Shown here: piece by piece, positions 3-31,703 of the stretch
How the letters are laid out: each line of letters opens with the position of its first letter
Numbering within the stretch: the stretch's first letter is position 1
Source of the DNA: Thermoplasmatota archaeon
Lineage (GTDB): Archaea; Thermoplasmatota; Penumbrarchaeia; Penumbrarchaeales; Penumbrarchaeaceae
Direction: 5' to 3'
Assembly: GCA_029762535.1 (NCBI GenBank)
Contig: JARVGK010000031.1
Location: 1-36,254 of the forward strand
DNA: 36,254 nt
The notes under the pieces: generated by a model
Seen by the model: the letters and a program-made list of their open reading frames with translations, nothing else
What the model was told of the DNA's origin: nothing
Database searches by the model: none
Made by a program: the position numbers and the translations under genes

Positions 3-3000
3 GGATCCCTCCGGGGAGGGGGGCGGGCGATCTCCGGATTGTTCATAAACAGATCCCGTGATGAGAACATCGGGTTGTTCGGTTATTTGGACATTGGCAG
101 CTCTGTCATAGGCGTCCATCTCGTGGAAGTGAATATCACTGGCATGGAGAAAGTGGGAGGGATCTCCGGTTTTAATAGAGGGAGGCTGATCGACTGCTCG
201 ATATCCGGTGAGATCAGCGGATATTTGGATACGGGCGGGGTCGTGGGTAGGAATTGGTATGGATACGTTTCAGATTGCCGTGCCGATTTGGCCATTACCG
301 CGAACTATCAGATCGGCGGCATTGCCGGTTACAATGATTTCAATAGCATTCTTACGAACTGTTCGGCCAACGCAGAGATCTGGGGAAATTCCCGCATAGG
401 CGGGATCGTCGGTTACAACAAGAACACGGTATACAATTGCACATTCTCAGGATTCATCCAGGGGAATTCGAATATAGGCGGTATTACCGGATACAATCAC
501 CTCGACGGCAATGTCTCCAACGTATCTGCGAATGTGAAGATCATGGGCGGATCGGACATTGGAGGTATTGTCGGGGAAAATCTCGGATCGGTTGCGGATG
601 GGTTCGCTTCTGGCAATGCGACCGGTCAATATCGTTTGGGCGGCGCTGTCGGAATCAGTTACGGAACGGTTCGCGATTGCAGCACCGTCTTCGATTGCAA
701 TGGGTCCTTTTTTATCGGCGGTTTGATCGGATTTTCGACCGGACCTGTTTCACGCTGCCATGCCGCGGGAAATGTGATAGGAGAGAGGAATGTCGGGGGA
801 CTGGTCGGTGGAAATTCCGATTTGATCTCGGAATGCATGTCTGTAGGTAACGTGATCGGTCTCGTAGATGCCGGTGGATCAGTGGGACATAACACTGGTT
901 CGATGGTGAGTTGCCATTCGACCGGAAACGTCAATGGCCTTATAAATTTGGGTGGTCTTGTCGGATCCGGTTGGGGCGATATCGATAATTCCCATTACAA
1001 TATCGACACCGTAAAAATAAATGGCGCTCATCGTATAACGAGAGGTGGAATATTCGAGGATCAGTACCGTGATTGGTTCGAAAACGGCAAGGTACTGGAT
1101 ATAACGAATTACGATTCGACCCTTGTCCTCAATGATATTTATTATGAGATAAGCTCTATGGCCGGGATGAGGGATCTTCTGGGCTTTTGTGAGGTGGAGG
1201 AGTTCAGATTCGCCCTGATCTCCGATCTGGATATGTCCGATGAAGTGGGATTCCATATTCCTTACTTTGCTTGTTCGGAGTTCAACGGCAACGGTTTCTC
1301 GATCAGGAACTTCTCCTTGGATGATCTGAACGAAAACCTGGGTCTCTTCGATCAGGTCGATGCCAATGCCCGGATAAGCGATCTTAACATGATCGACTTC
1401 AGGATAAATGGGCCCTCTTTCGTAGGATCGATCGCGGGGACCAACAGAGGCATCATCAGTGATTGTTATGTGACAGGGAACGTATCTGGCGATCATTATA
1501 TTGGAGGCCTCGCTGGATTCAACGAGGGAGGGATCAAGAACTGCACGATAGGATCATATGTAAAGGGCGATAGAGGTCTTGGAGGGCTTGTGGGATACAA
1601 CATAGGGGAGATATTCAACTGTAAAGTGATAGGATATGTGAACGGCAATGACTTTATTGGAGGTCTATCCGGATCGAACTTCGGAAACGTTTCCAACTCG
1701 ACCGCAGAGGGGATCGTTCAGGGTAAGGACATGGTAGGCGGCCTCTTAGGTAGCAATCACATTGGTACGGTTACGGGATGCGGATCCGGTTCGAATGTGA
1801 GCGGTTCGAACTACTGCGGAGGGCTTGTTGGAGCGAATGTGGAAGGGACATTGGCCCACTCATATTCGAAAGGCAATGTCAACGGTATTTCTGGATCCGG
1901 CGGGCTGGTAGGTTGGAATACAGGCAACATATTCATCTGCCGCGCTACAGGTAAGGTCAACTGTGATGATCCGAGCGTAGGCGGACTCGTAGGGATCAAT
2001 GAAAGGGACGGGTCGGTAACGAACAGCTATGCGTGGGGGGACGTCATCGGCGGAAGGGGTGTCGGGGGGCTGATCGGGTCTAACTATGGGGAAGTATCGT
2101 TCTGTTATTCAGCCGGGCAGGTCTCAGGTGGGGAGGAAATAGGCGGACTAATCGGGTCCTATCATGGGACCGTATCCGATTCCTTCTACGACAACCATAC
2201 CTCCGGTATGAACGCCAGCTCCGGCGGGGTAGGTAAGAACACCTCGGACATGAAAAGAAGAGAGACTTTCGCCGATGCCGGTTGGGATCTCATCAACGTT
2301 TGGTCCATCATCGAACACGTCACCTACCCCTTTTTCAAAGAGGAAGTGGTTGAAAAGCCCGTTGCCGATGCCGGTCCGGACCTTGTTGTGGATCAGGGCA
2401 CATTGGTAACTTTCGATGGCAGCGATAGTTACGATCCGTTCGGGATCGTCAATTACACATGGACCTTTTTCGATGGATCGCCTGTTGTCCTATACGGGAT
2501 GCGATCTGCATACAGGTTCGACGATGCAGGTGTTTTTATTATCAATCTTTACGTTAAGAACGCCTACGGGATCCATGATGAGGATCAAATAACCGTGACA
2601 GTGAGGGACATCACCGCCCCTATCGCGTATGCAGGCCCCGATCAGATAGTCGATGAGGGATCGCTCGTGGCCTTTGACGGGAGCGAATCCCTTGATAACG
2701 TCGGTATGCTGAACTATTTCTGGACGTTTTATGACGGAGGAACGATCGAACTAAACGGAGTGGCACCCTCTTATCTTTTCGACAATCCAGGCATGTTCAT
2801 GGTGACGCTGAACGTCACCGATGGATCTGGGAACTGGGCAACGGACTCTATGACCGTGACGGTGAGAGATATCACCGCTCCCGTGGCAGTTGCAGGATCC
2901 AATCTCACCGTCGATGAAGGGACCGTTGTCTATTTCGACGGGAGCGGCAGTTACGACAACGTCGGGATCGCGAACTACACATGGACGTTCATCGACGGGG

Positions 3001-5190: not shown

Positions 5191-5224
5191 AATGGGCCCA
5201 TTTAGTAAATATACCTGCCGATTG

Positions 5225-14788: not shown

Positions 14789-14807
14789 AAGTGAACAGGT
14801 GCAGAAC

Positions 14808-15044
14808 ATGAACCCCGTCTTGAGAAACCCAAGGTCGTTATCCAGCATCCCCGAGGGGAATAGAGTTAGGATATTCGATATCCAAGGGGGAAGGGGCGTG
14901 AGGCTGCGCCTGCGCGAGATGGGTCTTTCCCCGGGCGATGAGATCGATGTGGTCCGGAACGGCGGTGGGCCGATGATCGTTCTCAACGGGACCCTGCGCA
15001 TCGCTCTCGGAAAAGGCGTCTCCAGCAAGATACTGGTGGAATGA
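14808..15044 (+). CDS. feoA: FeoA-domain (SH3-like) protein
   Basis: LSSIPEGNRVRI...RLRLREMGLSPGDEIDVV...GPMIV...RIALGKGVSSKILVE. Confidence 0.88.
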   Translation: MNPVLRNPRSLSSIPEGNRVRIFDIQGGRGVRLRLREMGLSPGDEIDVVRNGGGPMIVLNGTLRIALGKGVSSKILVE

Positions 15045-15086: not shown

Positions 15087-18041
15087 ATGAAGATGACCGA
15101 CCCTGCCCGGAGAACGGAGGAGGCGGATCCCGATGACGAGGTCAACGGAAGAAGCACCCAGTTCTACGATCTCATGAGACACAAGGTGACCAAGATACTG
15201 CTCGTATCATCGCCTTACGAAGCCTTCATCCTTGAGGAGGATGGGATACTCTTCGAGAAGATATCCTTCGAGTACGAGGATATGAGCCTGAGCTCTCCGC
15301 CCAGGATAAACCGCGTCTCCTCAGCGGCGGAAGCGTTGGAGGAGATCAGGAACCTTCGCTACGATCTGATAATAACGATGGCAAGGCTGCCCGATATGGA
15401 CCCACTCGAATTCGGCAGGAGGGTCAAGGAGGCCCAGCCATCCCTACCAGTGGTCCTATTACTGATGGATAGGGGCGATCTCTCCCAATTCCACAGGGCA
15501 GGAGAATACGATTCAGTTGACAAGGTGTTCCTGTGGAACGGGGATTCGACCCTTTTCCTGGCCATCAACAAGCTTATTGAGGACAAGAAGAACGTTGCAT
15601 CCGACACGTCGACGGGACTCGTGAGGGTAATACTCATAGTCGAGGATTCTCCCAGATACTATTCGATATTCCTGCCTTTGATCTACACCGAGATACTCAG
15701 GCAGAACAAACTGTTGATATCGGAGGGCTTCAACGAACAGGACAAGCTTTTGAGGAAGAGGTCCAGGCCCAAGATCATTATGGCAGAGACCTTCGAGGAG
15801 GCCCTTGAGAAATATACATTCTACAAGAGCTGTATGCTCTGCATAATAAGCGACGTTTCGTTTCCCAGAGCTGGCAGGCTGCATGAGGAGGCGGGGTTCG
15901 AGCTCATCGATGAGATTGATAAAGGGACGCCGGTCCTCTTGAACTCCTCGCACGACGATCATATGAAAAGGGCTCAGGATATGGGGGTGCCCTTCCTCAA
16001 CAAGAACTCGACCGTTCTGCTTTCGGGGATAAGGGAGTTCTTCAAGGAGAGGCTCGGTTACGGCGATTTCATCTTCAGAACGCCCGATGGTACCGAGATA
16101 GACCGGGCCAAAGGAATACACGAGTTCATGGAGATGATAAAGAGGATACCTTCCGAGTCATTGTATCACCACGGAAGGGCGAACCAGTTCTCCAGCTGGC
16201 TTCTGGCCAGAGGAGAGGTCGCCCTCGCCGCGAAACTCAGGCCCAAGAAGGTGTCGGATTTCCGAGACGGGGAGGAGATGCGAGAGCACATAATCGAGGC
16301 GATCAAGGAGATAAGAAGGAGCAAGCAGATGGGGGTCATACTGGATTTCGACAGCCAGGAGTTCGAGTTCGAGGGGACCGTCACAAAGCTTGGAACAGGT
16401 TCCCTCGGGGGTAAGGGCAGGGGTATCGCTTTCCTATCATCGATCGTCAAGAGGTCCTCTCTTTCCGATCGGTTCAGGGGCGTCAGGATAAAGATACCGG
16501 AGACGTTGATAATCGGCACCGAATGGTTCGACAGGTTCAGCGAGGCTAACCGCGAGAAATGGTTGGGAGACCCCGATATGGAGGACCATGAGATATCGAA
16601 GAGATTCCTGGAGATGGAGATGCCCGCTGAGCTCGTCGACTCTCTGCGCAAGTTCATCTCCCACGCAAGGTTCCCCTTGGCGGTGAGGTCGTCGAGCCTT
16701 CTGGAGGATTCGCACAACCAGCCTTTCGCCGGTATTTACTCCACCTACATGCTCCCGAACAACTGCCCCGAGGACGAAGTGAGGCTGGCCCAGCTGGTGG
16801 ATGCGGTGAAGCTCGTCTACGCCTCGGCCTTCCACAAGGCGGCCAGGAGCTACATGAGATCGACGGTCCACGTCACCGAGGAGGAGAAGATGGCCATTGT
16901 CATTCAGAGGCTCGTAGGGAACGGGCTCGGGGACAAGTTCTTCCCCCTCATGTCAGGGGTCTCCCAATCCCTGAACTTCTACCCCGCTCCGCCTCTCACA
17001 AGAGAGGACGGGATCACCAGCGCCGCATACGGCCTGGGTAGGATAGTCGTGGAGGGCGGCAGGGTGCTGTCCTTCTCCCCCAACCGCCCCGGAGTGCTCC
17101 CGGGTTTCTATACAGTTGAGGACATGCTGAAGAACTCACAGAAGGATTACTACGCTCTCGATATGGGGCCCAACTGCGCCCATCTTGTGGAGGGGGACCA
17201 TGCGACGCTCGTCAAGCAGGACATCGCCGACGCCGAGGATGCGGATTGGACCGGATATGTCATGAGCACCTACGATCCCAACGATGGAAGGTTGCGGGAC
17301 GGGATCGGAACGGAGGGTCCGCGCCTCGTCACTTTCGCCGGGATCCTCAAGGGAAAGATGGTCCCCGTGGACCTGATATTGAAGGAATTGACCGATATCG
17401 GCAGAAAAGGTATTGGAAGGCACATCGAGATCGAGTTCGCTCTCGCAATGGGATCGGACGGTGTCCCCGAGTTCTACCCGCTCCAGATCCGCCCCCTGGT
17501 AACATCGAGGGAAAAACAAGTAGTGTCGATCCCGGAGGCGGACCTCCAACATGCCCTGGTCCATACCGATTCAGCTCTCGGGAACGGGGCCATAGATGGC
17601 ATCCGAGACGTGATCTTCATACCCTACGACCTCTTCGATGTGAACAGGACCGTGGAGATCGCATCGGAGATCGGCGCGTTCAACGAGAAGATGTGCGGCA
17701 GCCCCTACATTCTGATAGGGCCAGGCAGGTGGGGTACCAGGGACCGCTTCCTGGGAATACCTGTCAAATGGGACCAGATCTCCTGCGCCAGGGCCATGGT
17801 GGAGTATTCCACTGAGGATCACAGGATAGATCCCTCCCACGGGACACATTTCTTCCATAATATAACCTCCCTGAACATACCCTACCTGTCCGCTGGCAGA
17901 TCTGGTATCGATTGGGATCGGATAGCCGGGATGGAGGTTCTCGAGAGGAGCGCCCATGTCGTGCATGCCGCTTCCAAAGAGCCGTTGAGGGTAGTGGTGG
18001 ATGGAAGGTCGGGAAAAGGGGCGGTAATGCATGAAAATTGA
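15087..18041 (+). CDS. PEP-synthase-like ATP-grasp (PPDK_N) protein with two N-terminal receiver-like domains, a DUF5752-like domain and a C-terminal GTHFF domain
   Basis: REC-like KILLV...DLIITM; REC VILIVED...IISD...LNSS...FLNK; GDFIFRTPDG...ESLYHH...NQFSSWL; ATP-grasp motifs GGKGRG, AVRSSSLLED...FAGIY, IEIEFA...LQIRP; GPGRWG and PSHGTHFFHN. No PEP/pyruvate TIM barrel. Confidence 0.85.
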   Translation: MKMTDPARRTEEADPDDEVNGRSTQFYDLMRHKVTKILLVSSPYEAFILEEDGILFEKISFEYEDMSLSSPPRINRVSSAAEALEEIRNLRYDLIITMARLPDMDPLEFGRRVKEAQPSLPVVLLLMDRGDLSQFHRAGEYDSVDKVFLWNGDSTLFLAINKLIEDKKNVASDTSTGLVRVILIVEDSPRYYSIFLPLIYTEILRQNKLLISEGFNEQDKLLRKRSRPKIIMAETFEEALEKYTFYKSCMLCIISDVSFPRAGRLHEEAGFELIDEIDKGTPVLLNSSHDDHMKRAQDMGVPFLNKNSTVLLSGIREFFKERLGYGDFIFRTPDGTEIDRAKGIHEFMEMIKRIPSESLYHHGRANQFSSWLLARGEVALAAKLRPKKVSDFRDGEEMREHIIEAIKEIRRSKQMGVILDFDSQEFEFEGTVTKLGTGSLGGKGRGIAFLSSIVKRSSLSDRFRGVRIKIPETLIIGTEWFDRFSEANREKWLGDPDMEDHEISKRFLEMEMPAELVDSLRKFISHARFPLAVRSSSLLEDSHNQPFAGIYSTYMLPNNCPEDEVRLAQLVDAVKLVYASAFHKAARSYMRSTVHVTEEEKMAIVIQRLVGNGLGDKFFPLMSGVSQSLNFYPAPPLTREDGITSAAYGLGRIVVEGGRVLSFSPNRPGVLPGFYTVEDMLKNSQKDYYALDMGPNCAHLVEGDHATLVKQDIADAEDADWTGYVMSTYDPNDGRLRDGIGTEGPRLVTFAGILKGKMVPVDLILKELTDIGRKGIGRHIEIEFALAMGSDGVPEFYPLQIRPLVTSREKQVVSIPEADLQHALVHTDSALGNGAIDGIRDVIFIPYDLFDVNRTVEIASEIGAFNEKMCGSPYILIGPGRWGTRDRFLGIPVKWDQISCARAMVEYSTEDHRIDPSHGTHFFHNITSLNIPYLSAGRSGIDWDRIAGMEVLERSAHVVHAASKEPLRVVVDGRSGKGAVMHEN

Positions 18042-18093: not shown

Positions 18094-18624
18094 GTGGTCC
18101 GGGGTCGCCCTCGATCCCTGTCCAGCGGGCCTCTCGGGGTGTTCTCTTTGGATGATGTGCCGCCAGTTTCCGGGTCCCATCAAGCGAAAAAGATCGTCGA
18201 AAGAAGCAAGCTGATACCGCGACTGCAGAAGATACAGGAGAAGAACGGCTACCTGCCCGAGGCGGAGATAGTATCCCTTGCAGAGGAGCTCGGGATCCCG
18301 CTAAGTTCCATATATGGCGTTGCGACCTTCTATACGCAGTTCCGGTTCCAGCCTCTGGGCAAGTACGTGCTAAAGATATGCCACGGCACCGCCTGCCATG
18401 TGAACGGGGCCGTGAAGATGTCGGAGGTAATAACCGAGGTTCTCGGGATAGACGAGGGCCAGACGACCCCTGACGGTCTGGTCACCGTTGAGCGCGTCGC
18501 ATGCCTTGGATGCTGTTCCCTCTCACCGGTAATAATGATAAACGATAGGGTGTTCGGTAAGCTGGACACTGCGAAGCTCAGGGATATACTCGACAAGCTC
18601 AAGAGAGGTGAGATCGATGATTGA
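18094..18624 (+). CDS. NuoE/HydC-like thioredoxin-fold [2Fe-2S] subunit (StnA/NfnC-like); start uncertain
   Basis: LQKIQEKNGYLP, GVATFYTQF, ICHGTACHV and ACLGCCSLSP. Confidence 0.9.
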   Translation: MVRGRPRSLSSGPLGVFSLDDVPPVSGSHQAKKIVERSKLIPRLQKIQEKNGYLPEAEIVSLAEELGIPLSSIYGVATFYTQFRFQPLGKYVLKICHGTACHVNGAVKMSEVITEVLGIDEGQTTPDGLVTVERVACLGCCSLSPVIMINDRVFGKLDTAKLRDILDKLKRGEIDD

Positions 18625-20416
18625 ATACATATCGATCGGCATGAACTCCTGCGGGATCGCCGCAGGGGCGAAGGATACGTATCAAGCGCTTGTGAAGGGG
18701 TTGAAGGAGAGGTCGCTCGACATACCCATCAAAGTCGTGGGATGCGCCGGAATGTGCTACAGGGAGCCCCTCGTCGATGTGGTCGAGGGGTCCGGTATAA
18801 CGGGTTACGGCGGCGTGACGGCGGACAATGTGGAGAGGATCATAGAGGAGCACATCGTGAAAGGTTCCCAGGTTCAGGACCTGATGGTGAAGAAGGCCTC
18901 CAGGTCAGATCCTGACGATATCAGATGGGACATGGACATGTTCTTCAAGAAGCAGAAGAAGATAGTCCTTGAGAACTCCGGCATCATCGATCCGGAGCAG
19001 ATATCCGAATACATGGACAGAGGTGGATATCATGGCCTTCGAAAGGCCCTCTCGATGGCGCCGCCCGAGGTGGTATCAGAGGTGGATAGGTCCGGATTGA
19101 GGGGCAGAGGGGGGGCTGGTTTCCCCACCGGACTCAAGTGGAAGATAACAATGGAGGCCAAGGCGAACAAGAAGTATGTGATATGCAACGCCGACGAAGG
19201 CGATCCGGGGGCGTTCATGGACCGCAACGTCCTCGAGGGGGATCCCCACAGGGTGATCGAGGGGATGACCATCGGGGCATATGCCGTGGGCTCGGACGAG
19301 GGATACATCTACTGCAGGGCCGAGTATCCCCTGGCGATCAAGCGCCTCAGCATAGCCATAGACCAGGCCAAGGAGAAGGGATTCCTCGGGAAGAACATAC
19401 TCGGTAGCGACTTCTCCTTCGACATACACATCAAGGAAGGGGCCGGTGCTTTCGTATGCGGCGAGGAGACCGCCTTGATGAATTCCATCGAGGGTAAGCG
19501 GGGCATGCCCAGGCCCAGGCCCCCATACCCCTCCGAAAAGGGCCTTTTCGGCGCATCGACGATGATAAACAATGTGGAGACATGGGCGAACGTCCCCTGG
19601 ATAATGCGAAAGGGGGCCGATAGATACGCCGAGTTCGGCGTCGACAGGAGCAAGGGGACGAAGGTGTTCGCCCTGGCAGGAAAGGTGAGAAGGGGAGGGA
19701 ACGTGGAAGTGCCCATGGGCATGCCCATAAGGGAGATCCTCTACGATATAGCCGGAGGCTCCAGCACGGATAGGGATATCAAGGCCGTGCAGTTCGGGGG
19801 CCCCTCGGGCGGCTGCCTCCCATCCACGCTGTTCGACACTCCGGTAACGTATGAGGACCTGACCAAGACTGGCGCGATCGTTGGCAGCGGAGGTATGGTG
19901 GTGATGGACGAGGGAACGTGCATGGTCGATATAGCCCGTTTCTTCCTGGATTTCACCGTCAAGGAATCCTGCGGAAAATGCACGTTCTGCAGGCTTGGGA
20001 CCAGGAGGATGTGGGAGATTCTCGACAGGATATCCGAGGGGAAGGGCAGGGAGGAGGACGTATCTGCCCTCGAATCGTTGGCATATGATGTCAAGGCCGG
20101 ATCGTTGTGCGGTCTGGGCCAGACCGCGCCCAACCCGGTCCTGACCACCCTTCGGTACTTCAAGGATGAGTTCATGTCCCACGTCAACGACAAGGAATGC
20201 CCGGCGCACGTCTGCAAACCGTTAATGAGATTCAATATTACTGATCGGTGCGTGGGCTGCACCGCCTGCGCAAGGGTCTGCCCTGTGAAGGCCATCAGCG
20301 GGGAGGTCAAATTGATGCACGTCATAGATCAGGAGGCCTGCATAAAATGCGGATCCTGCGTACAGGCCTGCAAGTTCAAGGCGATTGAGATCACCGGGAT
20401 AAAGGAGGTGGCCTGA
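18617..20416 (+). CDS. NuoF/HydB-like FMN/NAD-binding subunit with N-terminal 2Fe-2S and C-terminal 2x[4Fe-4S] domains (StnB/BfuB-like)
   Basis: SGLRGRGGAGFPTGLKW, CNADEGDPGAFMDR, GAFVCGEETAL, GGPSGG, ESCGKCTFCRLG, SLCGLG and two CxxCxxCxxxC motifs. ATG 18617 follows GAGGTG. Confidence 0.92.
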   Translation: MIEYISIGMNSCGIAAGAKDTYQALVKGLKERSLDIPIKVVGCAGMCYREPLVDVVEGSGITGYGGVTADNVERIIEEHIVKGSQVQDLMVKKASRSDPDDIRWDMDMFFKKQKKIVLENSGIIDPEQISEYMDRGGYHGLRKALSMAPPEVVSEVDRSGLRGRGGAGFPTGLKWKITMEAKANKKYVICNADEGDPGAFMDRNVLEGDPHRVIEGMTIGAYAVGSDEGYIYCRAEYPLAIKRLSIAIDQAKEKGFLGKNILGSDFSFDIHIKEGAGAFVCGEETALMNSIEGKRGMPRPRPPYPSEKGLFGASTMINNVETWANVPWIMRKGADRYAEFGVDRSKGTKVFALAGKVRRGGNVEVPMGMPIREILYDIAGGSSTDRDIKAVQFGGPSGGCLPSTLFDTPVTYEDLTKTGAIVGSGGMVVMDEGTCMVDIARFFLDFTVKESCGKCTFCRLGTRRMWEILDRISEGKGREEDVSALESLAYDVKAGSLCGLGQTAPNPVLTTLRYFKDEFMSHVNDKECPAHVCKPLMRFNITDRCVGCTACARVCPVKAISGEVKLMHVIDQEACIKCGSCVQACKFKAIEITGIKEVA

Positions 20417-23344
20417 ATGGTGAAGGTCATCGTTGATGGCAGGGAGTTCGATCTCCCCGACGACCAACCGATATTATCGGGTTTGAGAGAACAGGGCGAG
20501 CACATGCCCGGGATGTGTCTGAACCCGGAGTTGGACCCTTTCGGGTCCTGCAGGCTCTGCCTGATCGACGTGAAGGGAAGGAAGATAACGGCATGCTCGA
20601 CCCTGCCGTCGGAGGGAATGGAGCTGACGACCATCAGCCCGGAGATATCCGGTCTCAGAAGGACCGCGCTCGAGCTGATGCTGTCGGACCATTACGGCGA
20701 CTGTATAGGCCCGTGCCAGAAGGGATGTCCCGCCCACAGCGACGTACAGGGATATCTGGCCCTCATCGCCAACGGAAGGATACACGAGGCCGTCAAGCTC
20801 ATGAAGGAAAGGTACATACTCCCGGCGACGCTCGGCAGGGTCTGCCCAGCCTTCTGCGAGGAGGAGTGCAGGAGGAAGCTTGTGGAGGGCCCGGTAGCCA
20901 TAAGGCAGCTCAAACGCTACGCCGCGGACGAGGACCTCAAGGATCCATGGATGCCGGAGATCCCGCCGGCGACAGGCAGGAAGGTCGCCGTTGTGGGGGG
21001 AGGCCCGGCCGGGCTCTCCAACGCCTTCTACCTGAGGTCCATGGGCCATGATGTGACGATATTCGAGGCCATGCCCAAGCTCGGAGGCTGGACCCGGTAC
21101 GGGATCCCCCGCTACAGGCTGCCCAAGGATGTCCTGGACCGGGACATCGCGACGGTCATCGATACAGGGATCGATGTTAGATGCTCCACGAGGCTCGGTA
21201 AGGATGTGGCCCTGGACGATCTTTCGCGGCAATACGACGCGGTCTTCCTGGGCATAGGCGCCTGGAAAGGGAGGGCCATGGGAGTTGAAGGGGAGGACCT
21301 CCCCGGCGTATTCCAGGGTATAGACTTCCTCTCAAGGGTCAATCAGGGGGAGGGGATCGATCTCGGAAAGAGGGTGGTGGTCGTCGGTGGCGGTAACACT
21401 GCCATGGACGTGGCAAGGACGTGCCGAAGGCTGGGATGCGAGGTGACGCTGACCTACAGGAGGTCCGAGGACGAGATGCCCGCGGCCAGGATAGAGATAG
21501 AGGAGGCGAAGGAGGAGGGGATATGCTTCATGCTCCTTTGCAACCCCGTGAAGGTAATTGGCAATGACAGGCTGGAGAAGCTTGAGTTGATCGCCATGGA
21601 GCTCGGCGATCCCGACGCGAGCGGAAGGAGGAGGCCGGTGCCGAAGGAGTGCTCGGAGTTCACCCTGGACGCGGACAGCCTCATACTGGCGATAGGGCAG
21701 TACAACGATGACGATGAGATGAAGCGTCTCGGCGTGGGCGTCCGCAAGGGTCTGCTGGAGGTGGATAGAACGACGCTTCGGACCACCTATCCCAACGTGT
21801 TCGCCGGCGGGGACGCGGTCCTTGGCCCATCGACCGTCATCGAGTCCATCGAGCAGGGCAGGCGTGGGGCCCTGATGATGGACATGTTCATGAAGGGAAA
21901 ATTGGAGACGGTCAAGAAGGTCCTTGAGCGTCCGGGTGAGCATGTGGCAGAGACGGTACAGGATAGCGAGATCGCCTCGATGTTGATGGACCTCAAGCCC
22001 TACGATCACTGGAAGAACGTGACCGAGGCGGACTACGAGCACATCGAAAGGTCCCCGCGACGCAAAGCACCCATAATGGATCCGGACACCAGGTCGGGGA
22101 CCTTCTCGGAGGTCGAGGGTTCATTCGACGAGGATTCGGCCAGGGCCGAGGTGATGCGCTGCATGTCCTGCGGATGCATGGACGTTTTCGAGTGCAAGCT
22201 CAGGGAGTATTCCACCATCTACGGAGCGGACCAGTACAGATTCGGGGAAGGCAGGACCAAGGTCGATATCGATCTCTCCCACCCTCAGATCGTACTCGAC
22301 AAGAACAAATGCGTGCTGTGCGGACAGTGCGTCAACCACACGCAGGATGTCGTCGGGGAGGGCGTACTGGACTTCTGCAACCGAGGCGTCGAGACCGTGG
22401 TCTCCCCTCCGCCGGGAAAAGGGCTCTCCGACATGTCCGGTGTTATGATGAGTGACATGATCGATGTATGTCCGACCGGTGCGTTCTCCGAGAACACGCC
22501 CCATCGCAAACCGGGGCCCTGGAACACTCGGACGGTCCGCTCCATATGCAGCGGATGCGGAGTTGGATGCGAGATGGGGCTCGAGGTATACGATAGCGAT
22601 ATCGTCAGGGCCAGGTCGATACCGGATACTTGGAACAGGGGCCACCTATGCGATCCCGGAAGGTTCGAGAGGATCTGGGCCATTTCCCATAGCGGACCGA
22701 AAGTTCGCGACGGGGATTCCTACAGGTCCATCTCTCCCGATAAGGCATCTTCCATATTCCTCGAAAGGTCCAAGGGAATGGCGATCGTACTTGGCGGGGA
22801 CGTGACCCTTGAGGAGGCTGAGATGTTCAGGTCCATCGCCGTGGAGAAGGGGATCCCGATCGGTTCCACTGCCGAAGAGGGGCTATCGACGGCCACATAC
22901 ATGGATATCAGCCGTTCCAGGTCCATCTATTTGGCATTGGATGTCAATGGATATCCCGTGCTGAAACCCTTCCTGAACGAGGCGATAAGGCGCGGGGCGT
23001 CGATCGTGATGAGCGAGGAGGAGGCCGATATGATCATCGCGGAGGCCCCCTACGTTCCGGGTGAGAAGAAGGCGCTGGTCATGCACAGGGGGCTCAACGA
23101 TGCCGGATTGCTCCAGATGGGCATAAAGGGCATCCCGAAGGCCGACTCCTACCTGTTCGTGGGGGCCCAGCGCGATGAGCTGCTGGGGTACACGATCGCC
23201 CTGGGCCACAGCGAGATCGCGGATATGGTCCTGCCCTATCCCTCCTTCGCCAACAGGTCCGGGAGCATCGTCAATTCCGGGCTCATCAAGCTTACAAAAA
23301 AGGGACTGGTAGAGTCGGATATCAGAGCCTACCTGCCTTTTTGA
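20417..23344 (+). CDS. GltD/NfnB-like FAD/NADPH oxidoreductase fused to NuoG/FdhA-type Fe-S domains (StnC/NfnA/NsoC-like)
   Basis: N-terminal 2Fe-2S (CRLC, TAC), PCQKGCP, LGRVCPAFCEEEC, VVGGGPAG, GGGNTAMD...YRRS (NADP-type), RCMSCGC, KCVLCGQCV and ICSGCGVGC...HLC, then a short degenerate molybdopterin-like remainder. Confidence 0.88.
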   Translation: MVKVIVDGREFDLPDDQPILSGLREQGEHMPGMCLNPELDPFGSCRLCLIDVKGRKITACSTLPSEGMELTTISPEISGLRRTALELMLSDHYGDCIGPCQKGCPAHSDVQGYLALIANGRIHEAVKLMKERYILPATLGRVCPAFCEEECRRKLVEGPVAIRQLKRYAADEDLKDPWMPEIPPATGRKVAVVGGGPAGLSNAFYLRSMGHDVTIFEAMPKLGGWTRYGIPRYRLPKDVLDRDIATVIDTGIDVRCSTRLGKDVALDDLSRQYDAVFLGIGAWKGRAMGVEGEDLPGVFQGIDFLSRVNQGEGIDLGKRVVVVGGGNTAMDVARTCRRLGCEVTLTYRRSEDEMPAARIEIEEAKEEGICFMLLCNPVKVIGNDRLEKLELIAMELGDPDASGRRRPVPKECSEFTLDADSLILAIGQYNDDDEMKRLGVGVRKGLLEVDRTTLRTTYPNVFAGGDAVLGPSTVIESIEQGRRGALMMDMFMKGKLETVKKVLERPGEHVAETVQDSEIASMLMDLKPYDHWKNVTEADYEHIERSPRRKAPIMDPDTRSGTFSEVEGSFDEDSARAEVMRCMSCGCMDVFECKLREYSTIYGADQYRFGEGRTKVDIDLSHPQIVLDKNKCVLCGQCVNHTQDVVGEGVLDFCNRGVETVVSPPPGKGLSDMSGVMMSDMIDVCPTGAFSENTPHRKPGPWNTRTVRSICSGCGVGCEMGLEVYDSDIVRARSIPDTWNRGHLCDPGRFERIWAISHSGPKVRDGDSYRSISPDKASSIFLERSKGMAIVLGGDVTLEEAEMFRSIAVEKGIPIGSTAEEGLSTATYMDISRSRSIYLALDVNGYPVLKPFLNEAIRRGASIVMSEEEADMIIAEAPYVPGEKKALVMHRGLNDAGLLQMGIKGIPKADSYLFVGAQRDELLGYTIALGHSEIADMVLPYPSFANRSGSIVNSGLIKLTKKGLVESDIRAYLPF

Positions 23345-23404: not shown

Positions 23405-24235
23405 ATGGAGTGCATATTCGCAAGCGATCTGCATGGAAGGAAGGAAAGGTACGACGCCCTCTTTAGGTCCATAGGCGAGATCGCTCCTCAAGCGGTGTTC
23501 CTGGGCGGGGATCTCCTGCCAAGGACGGGCGACGTGGTCCTGTTCATAGAGGAGATGATGGACAGGATAGACGAACTGCGATCGTCATCGTCACCATGTG
23601 AAGTGTACGTTATACTCGGCAACGACGATCCCAAACAGTACGAGGGCGAGTTCATCAGGGCCGATAGGGAAGGCAAGATACATTACGCCCACCAGCGGAG
23701 ATTCGAACTCGGCGGATACGTCATCAGGGGCTATTCACATGTACCTCCCTCGCCGTTCCTCCTCAAGGACTGGGAGAAGTACGACGTATCGCGATATGTG
23801 GATCCCGGCTGCGTCCCCCCCGAGGAGGGGATCTTCACCACGGATGTGGACAGGGGGGCGATACCACACACCACGATCAAGGGAGACCTATCGCCCCTCA
23901 TCAGGGATCCGGACATGCACAGGACGATAATGCTGTTCCACGCACCGCCATATGGAACATCTCTTGACATGGCGAACATCGGCGGGAAGATGATAGACCA
24001 CGTACCGCTGGACCCCCACGTCGGTTCGATAGCGATAAAAGAGTTCATCGAGTCGGCCTCTCCGCTGCTCACACTTCACGGCCATATCCACGAGTCCGCG
24101 ACCCTCACGGGGTCCTGGCGGGAAGAGATCGGAAAAACGACCTGCCTTTCCGCGGCCTATGAAGGCAAGGGCCTGGCACTTGTACGTTTCGACACGGAGC
24201 AGTTGGGATCAGCCACGAGGGGGATCATTTCCTGA
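23405..24235 (+). CDS. Calcineurin-like (Icc-related) metallophosphoesterase
   Basis: Motifs SDLHG, LGGDL, GNDD, FHAPP and HGHIHE. Confidence 0.88.
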   Translation: MECIFASDLHGRKERYDALFRSIGEIAPQAVFLGGDLLPRTGDVVLFIEEMMDRIDELRSSSSPCEVYVILGNDDPKQYEGEFIRADREGKIHYAHQRRFELGGYVIRGYSHVPPSPFLLKDWEKYDVSRYVDPGCVPPEEGIFTTDVDRGAIPHTTIKGDLSPLIRDPDMHRTIMLFHAPPYGTSLDMANIGGKMIDHVPLDPHVGSIAIKEFIESASPLLTLHGHIHESATLTGSWREEIGKTTCLSAAYEGKGLALVRFDTEQLGSATRGIIS

Positions 24236-27200
24236 ACGTGAGCTTCCTGGCGGGGTTGTAGACGGAGCCTATGTGGGAGGCCCATGATGTCTTGTTGGCG
24301 ATATCGCCATGAGTGACGACATGGACATCCAGGAGGCATCCGGACCGGATCCCGGTCCTATAGAAATTCTCCTCGTCGAGCCTCTCTCCCCATTCCCTGA
24401 AATATTCCAGGAGCCTCTCCTCCTGCTCCCGTTTGCCGTTGAAAACAACTATCAGATCGATGTCGGAACCTGGACCGGCCTTGTTCTCCTTGACGCTGCC
24501 GACTAGGTATATCTCCTCTATGCCCATGGTCTTACGATCTATATCGGATAGAACATCATCGAGCCTCTCCATCCTCCACGAGTTATGATCGGGTGTGGCG
24601 AGGTATCCCATCGCCTTTATCGATTCCCCATCCATTACAACCGACAGAGATCCCCCGGAGGAGATGTCGGAGGTCCTGATCAGCCTTACAACTTCTTTGT
24701 GTCCATTCGATATCTGTACGTGCTCGTGGAGGCGGTTCTCCGAGATGCCCAGCAGCTGTTCGTTAAGATAGCCTCCTTCCTCGTCAGGGTACAGGGGAAG
24801 GTATTGTATGCCCGCCTCCACGAGGTCCTGGAAGAAATGGGTGCCGAAGGAAAGGTCCGGAACGTATCCTCCCTTGCTCCTTGCGATCTCTATGAGCAGG
24901 CATGTATTATTGATATCACCGTACTGGACCGGGACCCCGAGCTTTATGTCTCCCCTGCTGCCCCATCTTCCAGGCCCCATGAGGAGGAACCGCTTCTTCG
25001 GCAGAGCCGAGTTCAACCTGGAAACGATGCCCGCAACGGCGTTCATCTCCTCCCTGCTATCCAGCTTCTCATATGCCTCAGGGTCCACGTACACGATCCA
25101 ATCGATGTTCTTTATAAGTCCCGATGTGACGTATCTGGCGGCCCGGAAGAGAACGTTCTTCTCCAGAACATCCGTTGGAAGTGAGATCTTCTCCGATATC
25201 ATGCCTCGCGTCTGGGGCCTGCACTGGAGAATGTACAGGCTCGATCCGTCGTGGGCGAACTCGATATCAACTGGCGTCCTCAATCTATCCTTCAATAGCG
25301 TCATTACCTTCTTCATCTGCCTGATGAACGGCGTCCTCTCCACTATGCCGTTGAAGGTCACCACCGGCTGCCTTTGATCGGTTCCCAGTATGACCCCTTT
25401 CGGGTCCACGATCCCCCCTTCCGCGTGGAACGATATCATCTTCTCGAGGTCGGGATACGAGGACGAATTGGCCCTTATCATGTCCTCTATCCTTATGGTA
25501 TCTATGGTCTTTGACCCCATGTTGATGACGTCCATGAATACCTGCGAGTATCTGGCGATGTCCTCCGTGCTGGTGTTAACCCTTATCATGGGCTTCATCG
25601 GGGATATGAGTAGTGGATAATCGTTCGATACCCGATCCACCGCTCTGGTACCCAAACCCATCACCATTCTAAGTATCCCGTCCTGCCTGTTGATCCTTGC
25701 GGACCACCGGAACTCGTTATTGGTAAGGGCCACTCCAGCGAAGCTCGGGGTGAAATAGGGCCCGATGCGGTTGCCCACCACCTCCTGGATCAGGACGCCC
25801 ATGTTCTCAGAAAGGTCCAGAAGTCCCCTCTCCCTTCTGTATTCGATCGGGTTCGGTCCGAACGTGGACGCCCATACCTCCGCTATGGCGTCCATCAACG
25901 CGTTCAACCTCTCATCGTCCGTTCCCGTATTGCACAGGAACAGGCTTTTGTACTTGCCCGAGAAGGCCGCCCCGTAACTGTCCTCGAGATGGCTTGAGGA
26001 CCTGACGATTATCGGCCGGTCCTTGATCTCCCTGAGCACGTCCCTGAGCTGATTGAGTATCTCTGACGGGAACATGCCGTTCTTGAACAGCTGCTCCAGG
26101 AAGGGCTGCTCCTTCCTGATCTCGTTCGGGTCCATGTATTTGATCTGGACGACCTCGTCCAAGGCGTTCTCGTGTATGAACTCCCTCATCGCCCCCGTGC
26201 TCATGTACCAGCTGCGGGGGAACCTGATGGACCCGATGTCCTCATCTCTCCCCATCTCCTTTTTGATTATTCTTTCTATGAGAAAGACCATCGATGATTT
26301 TCCTCCGAGGCCTCCGACCCCTTCGTAATGGCCTATGAACCTGTGGGCCATCTGGTGGAAATCCTCTATCTCCAGGTAATCCTTGGCGACGTTGAGGTAT
26401 TCTGGCCTGTCGTTGAGGAAGCGTCTTATGAGATTCGTGACGATCGTGCGTTTCATCTCCTCGGGTATGATGCGATCGCCGACGGGTATCCGCATGTAAT
26501 TGTCGAGTGCGGATTGCACCTCCTTGAGCGAGATCTTTCCCTGCTCGGAAACCAGAAGCAGGGGCCTGGCCTTGTTCTCCTTCAGCCATCTGACCAGAAG
26601 GTCCATGATCTCGGACGATGTGAGATGCTTCGAGGCGACGTCGAAAAGGCCCTGCTGTACCTGAATAAGCGACTGCATATCGAACCTCGGGTTCGGAATG
26701 TTGGAACCCAGCTGTTCATCCTCCTCCGAAGAGGACGGCTTCAATATCGCCAATAGGCTCTCTAGGCTCTCCTCCTTGAGCCTTGCGAGATGGTACATCA
26801 TCTTCCTGCTGATCATGAGATATGTCTGCGGATCGGTCTTGTTGAGAATGTCGATTATCAGCCTCCACTCCTCTCCAGGTGTCGAAGCAGGACCGATCAT
26901 ATTCTTAAGGCTCGCACCTTTGGCGGATAGCAGCCTCTTCATCTGATCGACATAGCTTCTCACCTCCGCCTCGCTGTAGTACTGGCTGACGTACTTCGAT
27001 ACGTTCTCCGATACAACGCGTAGCAGTTTCCCCTCCTCTTTCAGGAAAGGACCTATGTCCCTTTTCGGCTTTTTCTTGTGATAGTTGACCCTTATTTCGC
27101 CTACGCTCTTCCCGCCCTGCATTATCGCTCCGGATAGGGACCATTCGGTCTGAGCATGTCCGGGCGTCTGATATGATCTGGGGCCAAGGGTGATGCCGGC

Positions 27201-27419
27201 CGTCGCGATCTCCGGATACATCATGGCCTGTGGCAGGATCTCCACTATCATCTGCATCGTCCTGTCTATGTCCACGCCCTCGTTCTCGATGATCTCCGCC
27301 ACTTGGTATATGCAGTTGAGCTCCTTGAGTCTCTCCCTCAGCTGGCTGTCCTTTTCGGCGAGCTCCCTGTCCAGATGGCCCATCTTTACGTTCTTTGCGG
27401 TCTTCGTCGCCTTTTTCAT
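24225..27419 (-). CDS. GAF-like + PEP-synthase-like ATP-grasp + GTHFF domain + C-terminal Pol-beta-type nucleotidyltransferase protein
   Basis: LRERLKELNCIY...YPEI...GPFLKEE (GAF-like segment typical of sensor kinases); GGLGGKS, IVRSSSHLED...FSGKYKS, DIEFAH...LQCRPQ; GPGRWGS, LSFGTHFFQDL; IYLVGSV...GSDIDLIV...DVHVV. Confidence 0.85.
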   Translation of the reverse strand: MKKATKTAKNVKMGHLDRELAEKDSQLRERLKELNCIYQVAEIIENEGVDIDRTMQMIVEILPQAMMYPEIATAGITLGPRSYQTPGHAQTEWSLSGAIMQGGKSVGEIRVNYHKKKPKRDIGPFLKEEGKLLRVVSENVSKYVSQYYSEAEVRSYVDQMKRLLSAKGASLKNMIGPASTPGEEWRLIIDILNKTDPQTYLMISRKMMYHLARLKEESLESLLAILKPSSSEEDEQLGSNIPNPRFDMQSLIQVQQGLFDVASKHLTSSEIMDLLVRWLKENKARPLLLVSEQGKISLKEVQSALDNYMRIPVGDRIIPEEMKRTIVTNLIRRFLNDRPEYLNVAKDYLEIEDFHQMAHRFIGHYEGVGGLGGKSSMVFLIERIIKKEMGRDEDIGSIRFPRSWYMSTGAMREFIHENALDEVVQIKYMDPNEIRKEQPFLEQLFKNGMFPSEILNQLRDVLREIKDRPIIVRSSSHLEDSYGAAFSGKYKSLFLCNTGTDDERLNALMDAIAEVWASTFGPNPIEYRRERGLLDLSENMGVLIQEVVGNRIGPYFTPSFAGVALTNNEFRWSARINRQDGILRMVMGLGTRAVDRVSNDYPLLISPMKPMIRVNTSTEDIARYSQVFMDVINMGSKTIDTIRIEDMIRANSSSYPDLEKMISFHAEGGIVDPKGVILGTDQRQPVVTFNGIVERTPFIRQMKKVMTLLKDRLRTPVDIEFAHDGSSLYILQCRPQTRGMISEKISLPTDVLEKNVLFRAARYVTSGLIKNIDWIVYVDPEAYEKLDSREEMNAVAGIVSRLNSALPKKRFLLMGPGRWGSRGDIKLGVPVQYGDINNTCLLIEIARSKGGYVPDLSFGTHFFQDLVEAGIQYLPLYPDEEGGYLNEQLLGISENRLHEHVQISNGHKEVVRLIRTSDISSGGSLSVVMDGESIKAMGYLATPDHNSWRMERLDDVLSDIDRKTMGIEEIYLVGSVKENKAGPGSDIDLIVVFNGKREQEERLLEYFREWGERLDEENFYRTGIRSGCLLDVHVVTHGDIANKTSWASHIGSVYNPARKLTFRK

Positions 27420-27447: not shown

Positions 27448-30213
27448 TCATACCTTTTGACCCCCGGGTATCTGCATAACGGCGCGTGATCCGCTCCCGT
27501 CTATGAGGACCCGGACCCCCCTCTCCGACCTTAGATGCATGACCCTATCGGACTCGTAGGCTTTTGGAATATCATCCAGAGCGCTCCAAAGGGCGGATCC
27601 GTCCTCCTCCGCATCCAAAGTGAGATAACCCAGGCGAAGGGACGATATGTTCTGGAAGAAATGGGAACCCTGGGACGGGTCGATCATCCTGTCGCCCACG
27701 GGCCTCTCCACCATCACTCCGACGGCCGAAATGTCGTTCCAGGCGACGGGTATGCCGAGCCATGGGTCGCATGATCCCCATCTACCGGGACCTATGAGGA
27801 GATGCTTTCTCCCCGATGAGGACACCTCCTTGTTGAGCTTTCCTATCTCCTTGACGAGGGCGTCCGCGCTCCTTCCCTCCAGCTCGCGCCCTTTGACCAT
27901 GATTATATCATTGAAGGCGAACTCTCCGTTGCCCATGGTCCTTCCGCATCTGAGCACGATCTCGTCCTCGGGGACGGAATCGAGATCGGCGAGCGATCTG
28001 CGGTCCCTGCCCCTCATGCTTCGCAGCTGCAGAAGGTAAAGTTCCGCATTCTCCCCGTCATCGAATATGTTCATGGCGAACTCGATCTCGACGGGAGTAC
28101 CCAGCGAGCGCTGGGACGCATCTAATATGTCCTTCATGACCTCGGCCATGGGGAAACGCTTCATCTGAAGAATGGGGGCGAAATCCACTATCCGGGGTCC
28201 GTCCCTGCCGCATCCCGGGTAGGTCCTGTCGTTCTCGCATGAATAGGTGGATACAAGACTGTCGAGGACACCGTCCTCCTCCGCCCTGGATAAGTCCTCG
28301 AGGACGATCTGCACGTCCTCGCCGAACTCGTTGGACCTCACGGTAGGTGAGAACTTCAGCGCGTAGAAACGCCTTTGAGTTCGATCGAGGCATTCCCGCC
28401 CCCCTCCGAGGAACGAGGAACGCGGATGGACGGGGCAGAACTTGAAGGTCGCCCCTCCGTCGACTATCATCTTTCCCAGCCCCACAGCGAGGCTGACGGT
28501 CCCGTCCTCGCTCCTGCATGTCGGGAAGGGCCAGTAATCGTAGGACCTCCCCACCCCGGATAGGTCAGGATAGTATAGTTCGCCGTGCGTGTTTCCGACG
28601 ACCTCCTGAATAACTGCCGCCATCTTCTCATCAGCATTATGGTTCCCTGTGCTTTCGAGATAGGCTCGTGCCCTCTTCAGGAAGGTTGAGGCATATACGT
28701 ATTTGATCCCCATGCTGATGTGCTTGAACCTCCGATCGAGCTCATGGCCTGAGTTCGAGAGCATCACCGATGCGTATATCCCGGCGAAGGGCTGGAAGAG
28801 CGCGTCCTCAAGAAGGCTCGAGGACCTGATTATCACGGGGTTCCTCACGATATCGGCGAAGTGGCGTATATCCCCGATAATGGTGCTGGGAAGGTCCGAT
28901 CTGAGGAACAGGTCGACGATCCTCTCGTCCGTCTCGTCCTTGAGCTTTTCGGGATCCAGTCCGTTGTTCTTGAGGAACTGGTCGAACACATCCGTAGCAA
29001 GTACAACGGTTCTTGGGACCTTTATCGTCAGATTGCTGTACTTTCCCCGGTCGAGGCTCATAGCCAATCCCTTGAGGAAAGATAACCCCCTGCCCTTGCC
29101 TCCCAGCTGTCCGCTCCCGATCCTGGTGAACTCGTCCTTGACCTGGGCGCTTCTTGTGAAATCCATTACGCTTCCGGACCCTCCCGAGCGGCGCCGCTCC
29201 TTGATAAGATCGATAAGGTGGGCTTTCCAATCTTGAGAGGCGTCCCGAAGGAATGCGTCCATATCGCGAACGATCTCGAACTCCGTCCTGCTTATCAGCC
29301 AAGGCCTGATACTTTTCCATTGATCCGGGCTTGGCCGGGTCGAATACAACAGCCTCTCAAGGCCCCTCAGGTCGCCACAGCTGCCCAGTTCCGTAACGCC
29401 CTCATCCTTGAGGACCAGATCCTCGGGGATGAGCATGTCGGATACGTTCTCCTCGGTGAGCTCCAAGGGGGGGAGTGACGGGATCCCTTTGATGGGAGCC
29501 TGATCGGAAATGACGAGCGAGACCCTGTCCCCGAAGCGGTGCAAGGCTTTTTCCAGCCCTCCGTAACGGATCGCGTCCATGACGCGTATCCTCCTCTCGA
29601 AGGCTCTGATCTTCTCTTTGAGCGCTGTTTTTCGGCCCATGATCCCCGGAAGCCTGGCCCATACGGCGTCGCAGGCGGCGATGATCGCATGAGACCTATC
29701 GGCCATATTCTCGATGTCCAGGAGAATAATGTGAGAGAGGCCTTCGTCCCTATCCGGGTCGTCAAGATATGACCGGTCCTCCATGAACTGGACTATACGG
29801 GGAACTATCTCAATCCCCTCGGGCATCAGGAAGATCGAGTCAAAGGCCGAGGGATCGATCTCTCCTTCCTGGTCAAGAACGCCTTTGTTCCTCGTCAAAA
29901 AGGCCAGCTTACCGGCGGGTGAAAATGCCCTCGCTCTCTCGATAAGATCGCCCATTGGCATGTCCGCGGGAGGATTGAACACCAAGGCGAGATCGATCCC
30001 GCCTCCCTCAATGGATCCAAGGGCCTGTTGGCCTCCGGAAGCGAAATCCACATCCGGAACGAAACCAAGATCGGCCTCGGAGTACCTTTTGGACAGGGCA
30101 GTTATTATAGGGACCTCACCCTCCAGATACAGCCGGTCGAACTCCGATGCTATCAGCAGCATGTGCCGGACGCTGGAGGTGGTGTCCCGATCCGCATCCA
30201 CGCTTTCGCTCAT
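27448..30213 (-). CDS. PEP-synthase-like ATP-grasp protein with degenerate receiver-like N-terminus and GSHFF domain (paralogue of 15087-18041)
   Basis: GGKGRGLSFL, IIRSSSLLED...FAGIY, EKMAAVIQEVVG, VEIEFAM...LLQLR, GPGRWGS and DPSQGSHFFQN. Confidence 0.85.
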   Translation of the reverse strand: MSESVDADRDTTSSVRHMLLIASEFDRLYLEGEVPIITALSKRYSEADLGFVPDVDFASGGQQALGSIEGGGIDLALVFNPPADMPMGDLIERARAFSPAGKLAFLTRNKGVLDQEGEIDPSAFDSIFLMPEGIEIVPRIVQFMEDRSYLDDPDRDEGLSHIILLDIENMADRSHAIIAACDAVWARLPGIMGRKTALKEKIRAFERRIRVMDAIRYGGLEKALHRFGDRVSLVISDQAPIKGIPSLPPLELTEENVSDMLIPEDLVLKDEGVTELGSCGDLRGLERLLYSTRPSPDQWKSIRPWLISRTEFEIVRDMDAFLRDASQDWKAHLIDLIKERRRSGGSGSVMDFTRSAQVKDEFTRIGSGQLGGKGRGLSFLKGLAMSLDRGKYSNLTIKVPRTVVLATDVFDQFLKNNGLDPEKLKDETDERIVDLFLRSDLPSTIIGDIRHFADIVRNPVIIRSSSLLEDALFQPFAGIYASVMLSNSGHELDRRFKHISMGIKYVYASTFLKRARAYLESTGNHNADEKMAAVIQEVVGNTHGELYYPDLSGVGRSYDYWPFPTCRSEDGTVSLAVGLGKMIVDGGATFKFCPVHPRSSFLGGGRECLDRTQRRFYALKFSPTVRSNEFGEDVQIVLEDLSRAEEDGVLDSLVSTYSCENDRTYPGCGRDGPRIVDFAPILQMKRFPMAEVMKDILDASQRSLGTPVEIEFAMNIFDDGENAELYLLQLRSMRGRDRRSLADLDSVPEDEIVLRCGRTMGNGEFAFNDIIMVKGRELEGRSADALVKEIGKLNKEVSSSGRKHLLIGPGRWGSCDPWLGIPVAWNDISAVGVMVERPVGDRMIDPSQGSHFFQNISSLRLGYLTLDAEEDGSALWSALDDIPKAYESDRVMHLRSERGVRVLIDGSGSRAVMQIPGGQKV

Positions 30214-31684: not shown

Positions 31685-31703
31685 TGAACATCCGATATCC
31701 GGA

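Follow-up and report, generated by a model that had tools for sequence, protein, structure and literature searches.

The window analysed here is the whole of contig JARVGK010000031.1 (assembly GCA_029762535.1; 36,254 nucleotides, forward strand) from a Thermoplasmatota archaeon of the family Penumbrarchaeaceae. We examined the gene at 15087-18041 on the plus strand, an open reading frame (ORF) with a product of 984 amino acids (aa). The product consists, in order, of a pseudo-receiver, an intact receiver, a DUF5752-like linker, a complete ATP-grasp domain of the type found in pyruvate phosphate dikinase (PPDK) and phosphoenolpyruvate synthase (PEPS), and a C-terminal domain that no profile recognises. 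A preliminary description of this gene had read it as a possible non-canonical His-to-Asp relay in one polypeptide. All of the motifs named there were found at the positions claimed: DLIITM at residues 93-98, VED at 185-187, IISD at 253-256, LNSS at 285-288, FLNK at 303-306 and PSHGTHFF at 916-923. The codons of three residues were also checked (M98, ATG, 15378-80; D256, GAC, 15852-54; H921, CAT, 17847-49). The features of the gene are the following.

15087..18041, plus strand: whole ORF, 984 aa; pseudo-receiver, receiver, DUF5752-like linker, ATP-grasp and predicted swivel His domain.
15183..15599, plus strand: REC1, pseudo-receiver (aa 33-171); receiver fold, acidic pocket gone (S41/S42, and M98 at the acceptor position).
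15621..16061, plus strand: REC2, intact receiver (aa 179-325); E186/D187, D256, S287, F303 and K306, with an extra helix (217-225) between alpha1 and beta2.
15852..15854, plus strand: D256 codon (GAC), predicted phospho-acceptor Asp at the end of beta3; from conservation, the RssB profile alignment and the codon check.
16062..16376, plus strand: DUF5752-like, mainly helical linker (aa 326-430), Pfam PF19027.
16377..17540, plus strand: PPDK/PEPS-type ATP-grasp (aa 431-818); GGKGRG (K443), VRSSSLLED (R534), EIEFA (E781/E783) and LQIRP (Q800/R802).
17541..18038, plus strand: C-terminal swivelling beta/beta/alpha domain (aa 819-984), a putative divergent phospho-histidine carrier domain; GPGRWG at 878-883 and S-x-G-[ST]-H-F-F at 917-923.
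17847..17849, plus strand: H921 codon (CAT), candidate phospho-histidine at the N-terminus of helix 921-928; from conservation, models and the codon check.

Pfam assigned Response_reg to residues 73-146 (a partial match, E 1e-9), DUF5752 to 340-428 and PPDK_N to 439-818, and gave no match within 179-325 (E <= 1) or within 819-984. Neither HisKA nor HATPase_c was found by Pfam in the 984-aa protein. The PEP/pyruvate TIM barrel (PEP-utilizers_C) likewise had no Pfam match, and the chain stops 63 residues past H921. The NCBIfam PEPS equivalogs scored 20-56 bits against cut-offs of 600-1060, and the protein is therefore not a PEP synthase; the genome has a separate canonical PEPS/PPDK-type enzyme on contig C58. 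The whole protein was modelled with AlphaFold2 (AF2) from 56 homologues (mean predicted local distance difference test score, pLDDT, 84.6; predicted template modelling score 0.76), and the model was compared with PDB chains by VIA-align. The C-terminal 173 residues were modelled separately on 99 diverse homologues (pLDDT 94.5). Conservation was counted over 113 full-length cluster representatives of 32-57% identity.

The ATP-grasp domain matched PF01326 with 118.9 bits against a cut-off of 27 (E 4e-34), over profile positions 3-323 of 328. K443, R534 and Q800 are invariant in the 113 representatives, and E783 (112), R802 (109) and E781 (106) are nearly so. We take these residues to be the equivalents of K22, R92, E323, Q335 and R337 of PPDK. 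The domain superposed on the ATP-binding domain of rifampin phosphotransferase (RPH) with Z 23. Judged by the full Pfam profile and the retention of every known PPDK/PEPS catalytic or Mg/phosphate residue, the ATP-grasp is complete. The domain preceding it had been described as a DUF5752-like bridge between receiver and ATP-grasp, in agreement with the Pfam match at 340-428, which scored 26.4 bits in the whole protein (cut-off 23) and 34.6 bits when the segment was scanned alone.

The two N-terminal domains differ in their pockets. REC1 has the receiver fold, with Z of about 15 to the PorX and PmrA receivers over model residues 33-167. It had been said to lack the acceptor Asp; position 98 is indeed Met here and is never Asp in the 113 homologues (M in 64, T in 19, V in 7, and others), and REC1 is therefore a fixed pseudo-receiver. 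In the AF2 model REC2 shows the (beta-alpha)5 order, with D256 at the end of beta3, S287 at the end of beta4 and F303 and K306 at beta5. The comparison with the ComE REC domain gave Z 15.1 (124 residues aligned, rmsd 2.4, model 180-327, VIA-align). A profile of 99 REC2 segments searched against the PDB matched receivers only, the best being RssB (E 8e-4), whose acceptor Asp motif ICDIAMP aligns with D256. Conservation of the pocket is high, and its motifs are no chance occurrence: E186 in 109 of the 113, D187 in 99, D256 in 102, S287 in 106 (plus 4 Thr), F303 in 97 (plus 5 Tyr) and K306 in 109. Fold, profile and conservation agree in this respect with the canonical set and helical insertion ascribed to the second receiver in the preliminary description. 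REC2 is, on these three lines of evidence, a receiver with the whole activation machinery, and phosphorylation of D256 is predicted.

The C-terminal domain had no Pfam match to PEP-utilizers (PF00391), and in the ESM Atlas it carries no annotation beyond the family's own clusters. Its separate model was searched against 48,161 chains by a Foldseek-independent structural search. The top match was the His domain of RPH (Z 7.4, chain 755-867), followed by the C-terminal domain of Bacillus stearothermophilus pyruvate kinase (Z 7.0), which we take to be swivel-like. The phosphoryl-carrier domain of PPDK (Z 6.7 for 2fm4, Z 6.5 for 1vbg 383-512) and the His domain of Enzyme I (Z 5.3-6.1) were also matched. 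Many of the other matches presumably belong to other SCOP superfamilies of the swivelling beta/beta/alpha fold. The ATP-grasp and C-terminal domains were also superposed as one body. Together they matched PEPS 2ols with Z 25.7 over 364 residues (model 420-984 on chain 4-467), RPH 5hv3 with Z 25.0 over 386 residues (431-983 on 7-866) and Clostridium symbiosum PPDK 1dik with Z 18.9 over 352 residues (431-984 on 8-511). These joint matches aligned 350-386 residues, compared with 262-283 for chains matched through the ATP-grasp only. With the plant PPDK chains 5lu4_B and 5jvl_A, titled swivel intermediate or ATP-analogue-bound, the alignment was confined to 415-810. In the 1dik conformer the His domain lies beside the nucleotide site, and the model therefore puts the C-terminal domain in a position from which H921 could reach ATP.

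A long loop leads into helix 921-928, which starts with H921, and G-[ST] comes just before the His. In the model H921 holds the place of the catalytic His in topological terms only, its motif being G-[ST]-H-F-F and not T-S-H. It is conserved in 111 of the 113 representatives and is hence not variable; the GPGRWG residues are kept in 106-112. The swivel fold put forward in the preliminary description is borne out by these comparisons, since the best matches are phospho-His domains and the docking on the ATP-grasp resembles that seen in PEPS, PPDK and RPH. Of the outcomes named there as refuting, none that could be examined was observed. Its further proposal, that H921 is the swivel phospho-His of the T-x-H type, stands in part: fold, placement and conservation agree with it, but the equivalence is topological and no profile links the domain to PEP-utilizers. 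A forced global hhalign of the domain to swivel domains gave a meaningless alignment. A register argument ('H+9..11 = N-I-P versus G-I-P') was dropped, as the family consensus at those positions is G-Y and not I-P. At the structural level the results support the assignment of the domain as a divergent phospho-histidine carrier that had escaped recognition until now. There is good support for ATP-to-His chemistry, and we infer that H921 is phosphorylated.

Among characterised systems RPH (RPH-Lm; 5hv1, 5hv3, 5fbs) is alike in combining a PPDK_N-type ATP-grasp and a C-terminal swivel His with no TIM barrel, and it gave the best match of the C-terminal domain alone (Z 7.4) as well as joint matches of ATP-grasp and C-terminus at Z 25.0-25.3. 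RPH differs in that a rifampin-binding domain separates its ATP-grasp from its swivel and in that it has no receivers, whereas in the 984-aa protein the swivel follows the ATP-grasp directly and both are preceded by 430 residues of signalling domains; the two sequences are about 20% identical, and only within the ATP-grasp. PEPS and PPDK (2ols, 1dik, 1kbl) share the ATP-grasp residues (K, R-S-S, E-x-E, Q-x-R) and a swivel docked on the nucleotide domain, whereas the 984-aa protein has no TIM barrel and its His motif is S-x-G-[ST]-H-F-F in place of their G-G-x-T-S-H-A-A. Enzyme I of the sugar phosphotransferase system also has a swivel-type phospho-His domain and passes its phosphate to the protein HPr, a precedent for a protein acceptor, but it is charged from PEP by a TIM-barrel domain and not from ATP by an ATP-grasp. 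Hybrid histidine kinases and His-Asp phosphorelays resemble the protein in joining a phospho-His carrier and a full receiver pocket in one chain; they differ in that the 984-aa protein is without HisKA and HATPase_c, its would-be carrier is of a different fold, and its ATP chemistry would yield AMP. When the whole model was compared by Foldseek, PleD was the best match other than the dikinases (E 3e-8). It has a tandem CheY-like pair of which only one member carries the acceptor Asp; in the 984-aa protein the pseudo-receiver precedes the receiver, and an ATP-grasp/swivel module stands as output in place of GGDEF. The protein would be the first in which a complete ATP-to-His module is joined to two-component receivers. 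The same domain combination appears in a 2018 census (PMC5847659) as a response regulator with predicted enzymatic output, from Heimdallarchaeota and Bacteroides; the census is a list only, without the swivel domain, the second receiver, linkage to glutamate dehydrogenase (GDH) or a function.

The family is large. Scoring of 8000 candidates gave 2136 family matches, of which the best 120 are all about 900-1030 residues long; among those of the 120 with a source name, nearly all come from Thermoplasmatota or other archaea, and one partial protein is labelled 'bacterium'. At 50% identity 4604 clusters matched at E <= 0.001 and 1035 at E <= 1e-30, and a Bacteroidales member used as query retrieved more than 7000 proteins at E <= 1e-100. 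Scanning with the C-terminal domain yielded at least 598 loci, which belong to Bacteroidota, Desulfobacterales, Gemmatimonadota, Spirochaetota, Cloacimonadota, Acidobacteriota, Myxococcota, Fibrobacteraceae, Ignavibacteriales and others. Of these loci 80 were kept, mostly with the full architecture at about 40% identity. The family thus ranges over archaea and at least ten bacterial phyla, and its members are annotated as 'PEP synthase' or 'PEP/pyruvate-binding protein'.

Two further members of the family lie in the window, beside GDH genes.

24225-27419, minus strand: paralogue with another N-terminus and a C-terminal NTP_transf_2 nucleotidyltransferase, 1064 aa; ATP-grasp motifs and GPGRWG / G-[ST]-H-F-F domain kept.
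27448-30213, minus strand: paralogue with eroded receivers, 921 aa; ATP-grasp motifs and GPGRWG / G-[ST]-H-F-F domain kept.
30270-33119, minus strand: the only two GDH genes of the genome (ELFV_dehydrog), next to the paralogues.

Both GDH genes and all three family members of this genome are contained within 19.5 kb of a 2.96 Mb genome. The arrangement recurs elsewhere. GDH adjoins the orthologue in three loci (L031-L033), lies within 8.5 kb in 12 of the 20 Thermoplasmatota loci fetched, and is nearby in 44 of the 80 loci kept from the C-terminal scan. In the pooled set of full-length loci, drawn from Thermoplasmatota and ten or more bacterial phyla, 50/91 had GDH in the fetched flank. Where the flanks reached 5 kb or more on each side, the count was 33/52, of which 14 were within 500 bp. 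The nearest GDH was of the type of the window gene 31704-33119 (471 aa) in 42 of the 50. Given one to three GDH genes per genome, we estimate a probability of about 1% that an 18 kb stretch chosen at random contains one. In one Bacteroidales locus (L079 3079-13989) korA/korB-like genes for 2-oxoacid (2-oxoglutarate):ferredoxin oxidoreductase, two tandem family members and gdh lie on one strand. The family is tightly linked to glutamate dehydrogenase genes, and this linkage is strong and previously unreported. It probably reflects control of nitrogen metabolism via an unusual phosphotransfer route. Elsewhere, paralogue pairs of the 921-aa and 1064-aa types travel with a GudB-like GDH type and a metallophosphoesterase.

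Through this linkage the family becomes a specific candidate for a regulator of GDH at the post-translational level in anaerobes, the gut Bacteroidales included. Reversible inactivation of GDH has been reported in gut Bacteroidales, and we know of no explanation for it. A 1996 report on Bacteroides, which we know by title only, reportedly deals with 'trans-acting gene(s) downstream of gdhA'; the present family might be the gene behind it, an unverified lead. No named Bacteroides thetaiotaomicron orthologue was among the best 120 matches listed.

D256 has been lost in 11 of the 113 representatives, and all 11 keep H921, K443 and E783. Since the His and the ATP-grasp are also kept in both window paralogues, ATP-grasp and swivel form a self-standing module with interchangeable regulatory ends.

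The preliminary description had further stated that no histidine kinase is encoded in the window, and this is correct: the window is a whole contig and carries none of the HATPase_c matches of the genome. About 13 HATPase_c and 13 Response_reg matches lie outside the contig. Kinases are plentiful elsewhere in the genome, and the absence of a local kinase therefore means little by itself. More telling are seven smaller Thermoplasmatota genomes (three families, 91-97% complete, one of them a single 1.6 Mb contig), each with one orthologue. No histidine kinase was detected in these seven: all of their HATPase_c matches were GyrB, Top6B or MutL, and HisKA, HisKA_2 and HATPase_c_2 gave no match above cut-off. 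The seven genomes also had no acetate kinase, and PTA_PTB occurred in the kinase-free genomes only in frames of about 780 aa, which, read from length alone, may be MaeB-like. Five orthologues from kinase-free genomes were aligned; D256, S287, K306 and H921 are kept in all of them, and the acidic pair is kept save for one D187N. An intact pocket in genomes with no detectable kinase indicates that selection maintains it without any kinase. These genomes offer a natural experiment on receivers fed by a non-kinase His donor. Candidate donors there are the protein's own phospho-His and carbamoyl phosphate, the alternative being a phosphorylation-independent role of the pocket. Other receivers were scarce: in four of the five kinase-free genomes searched, the sole other above-cut-off Response_reg match was a frame of 237-270 aa. 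The G185 copy of this short receiver-like ORF (L140 607-1317) is degenerate, with no acidic pair and no Lys, and it carries a proline-rich linker and a C-terminal membrane anchor. The window itself encodes, at 3862-5247 on the minus strand, a 461-aa protein with Schlafen AlbA_2, HATPase_c_4 and winged helix-turn-helix parts, which is not a histidine kinase despite the name of the domain.

We favour a reading, to which we give about an even chance, in which the protein is a receiver-gated 'mini-dikinase' with an external acceptor at the GDH / 2-oxoglutarate node. ATP would be bound by the ATP-grasp domain. The swivel domain would then present H921 for phosphorylation of the PEPS/PPDK/RPH type, in which the beta-phosphate is predicted to be kept and AMP and Pi to be released. 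Since nothing follows the swivel domain in the protein, it would carry the phosphoryl group to an acceptor outside any classical substrate domain. The acceptor would belong to the glutamate dehydrogenase / 2-oxoglutarate-glutamate node, being GDH, a partner or a metabolite; we infer this placement because the gene linkage is conserved. The pseudo-receiver and receiver pair would act as the switch, the phospho-state of D256, read via S287, F303 and K306, setting the activity of the module. D256 may be charged by an orphan kinase in this genome, which has at least ten histidine kinases, while in the kinase-free lineages the donor must differ and is possibly the protein's own phospho-His.

Several results weigh against this interpretation. 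The Z scores of 6-7.4 for the lone C-terminal model certainly establish a common fold only. A profile of 99 C-terminal sequences gave chance-level matches only in the PDB, with no phospho-His domain among them, and hhalign against 30 archaeal swivel domains aligned the last strand only, at a probability of 1%. No acceptor-binding domain was identified in the 984-aa protein, and GDH is proposed as the target only from the gene neighbourhood. Because seven genomes lack a histidine kinase, gating by a conventional kinase cannot be general. Finally, a literature search on DUF5752, PPDK_N with receiver, swivel with receiver, and GDH inactivation in Bacteroides found no biochemical characterisation of any member.

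The best of the other explanations is a self-contained relay, which we hold tentatively as possible. Here the ATP-grasp would make H921~P, which would phosphorylate D256 in the same chain or in a dimer partner; D256~P would act on GDH or other partners, and the dikinase module would replace the histidine kinase in the manner of a hybrid kinase. The phospho-His carrier and the intact, conserved receiver pocket in one polypeptide speak for it, as does the retention of that pocket in Thermoplasmatota genomes with neither histidine kinase nor acetate kinase. If true, a kinase-independent ATP-to-His-to-Asp switch controlling glutamate dehydrogenase would explain an intact receiver in archaea without histidine kinases. 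Carbamoyl phosphate or some other small donor would, however, also account for the kinase-free genomes, as would a role of the pocket that does not depend on phosphorylation. Moreover, in the 11 homologues and two paralogues described above the His is retained where D256 or an intact receiver is lost; D256 is therefore not an obligatory acceptor, and the His must have another. The protein also has no other output domain for D256~P to control. A complex prediction of REC2 with the swivel domain scored 0.00 in a run without controls and counts neither way. The idea in the preliminary description that H921 phosphorylates D256 or another target is accordingly narrowed: a relay to D256 may occur, but not as the sole job of the module. 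We consider a His-to-D256 relay less likely than transfer to an outside acceptor at the GDH node, the receiver serving as gate.

A dikinase acting on a small molecule appears unlikely. In this case a metabolite of the glutamate / 2-oxoglutarate node would be phosphorylated, with the acceptor site either in the DUF5752-like domain or at an interface, and the part played by the receivers would be regulatory only. The characterised enzymes with ATP-grasp and swivel His (PEPS, PPDK and RPH) all act on small molecules, and the family is linked to genes for GDH, 2-oxoglutarate oxidoreductase and glutamate synthase. Set against this, the protein has no recognisable substrate domain, neither a PEP/pyruvate TIM barrel nor an insert like the rifampin-binding one, and the DUF5752-like segment is small and helical. 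We also know of no candidate for a phosphorylated metabolite of this node, which counts against a small-molecule substrate.

It is more improbable still that the protein is not a dikinase at all, with H921 structural or a general base and the ATP-grasp a direct kinase/ligase or a nucleotide sensor under receiver control: the C-terminal domain does lack detectable sequence similarity to PEP-utilizers, its motif is G-[ST]-H-F-F rather than T-S-H-A-A, and the swivelling beta/beta/alpha fold is common to many non-phosphocarrier domains, but the top fold matches are specifically phospho-His domains, the domain follows the ATP-grasp and is docked there in the manner of PEPS, PPDK and RPH, and the His is near-invariant while neighbouring residues vary.

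Some members of the family differ in length. Two homologues, P0152 (1557 aa) and P0192 (1524 aa), have 550-585 additional N-terminal residues with no Pfam domain there. A fused histidine kinase was considered for these and five other longer homologues and rejected, as Pfam found only PPDK_N in the seven, plus DUF5752 in P0152. Bacteroidales members are about 1160 aa long; their N-termini are extended by some 160 residues, in which Pfam matched nothing. One family member in a related genome (G190:C2:35633-37249) was read through four TGA and two TAA codons and is probably a broken copy.

The genes immediately flanking 15087-18041 in the window are on the same strand.

14799-15044, plus strand: FeoA-domain ORF, 81 aa (Pfam E 1.7e-16); 42 bp upstream of 15087-18041, with no FeoB nearby.
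18094-23344, plus strand: genes for NuoE-like, NuoF-like and 975-aa GltD-like/Fe-S subunits; they begin 53 bp past the stop of 15087-18041.

In another locus (L032) the equivalent NuoE/NuoF/GltD set is followed by a gene with a Glu_synthase domain and then, directly downstream of this gene, by the orthologue. This arrangement suggests that a ferredoxin/NAD(P)H-linked complex of the glutamate-synthase type is encoded in the neighbourhood of 15087-18041.

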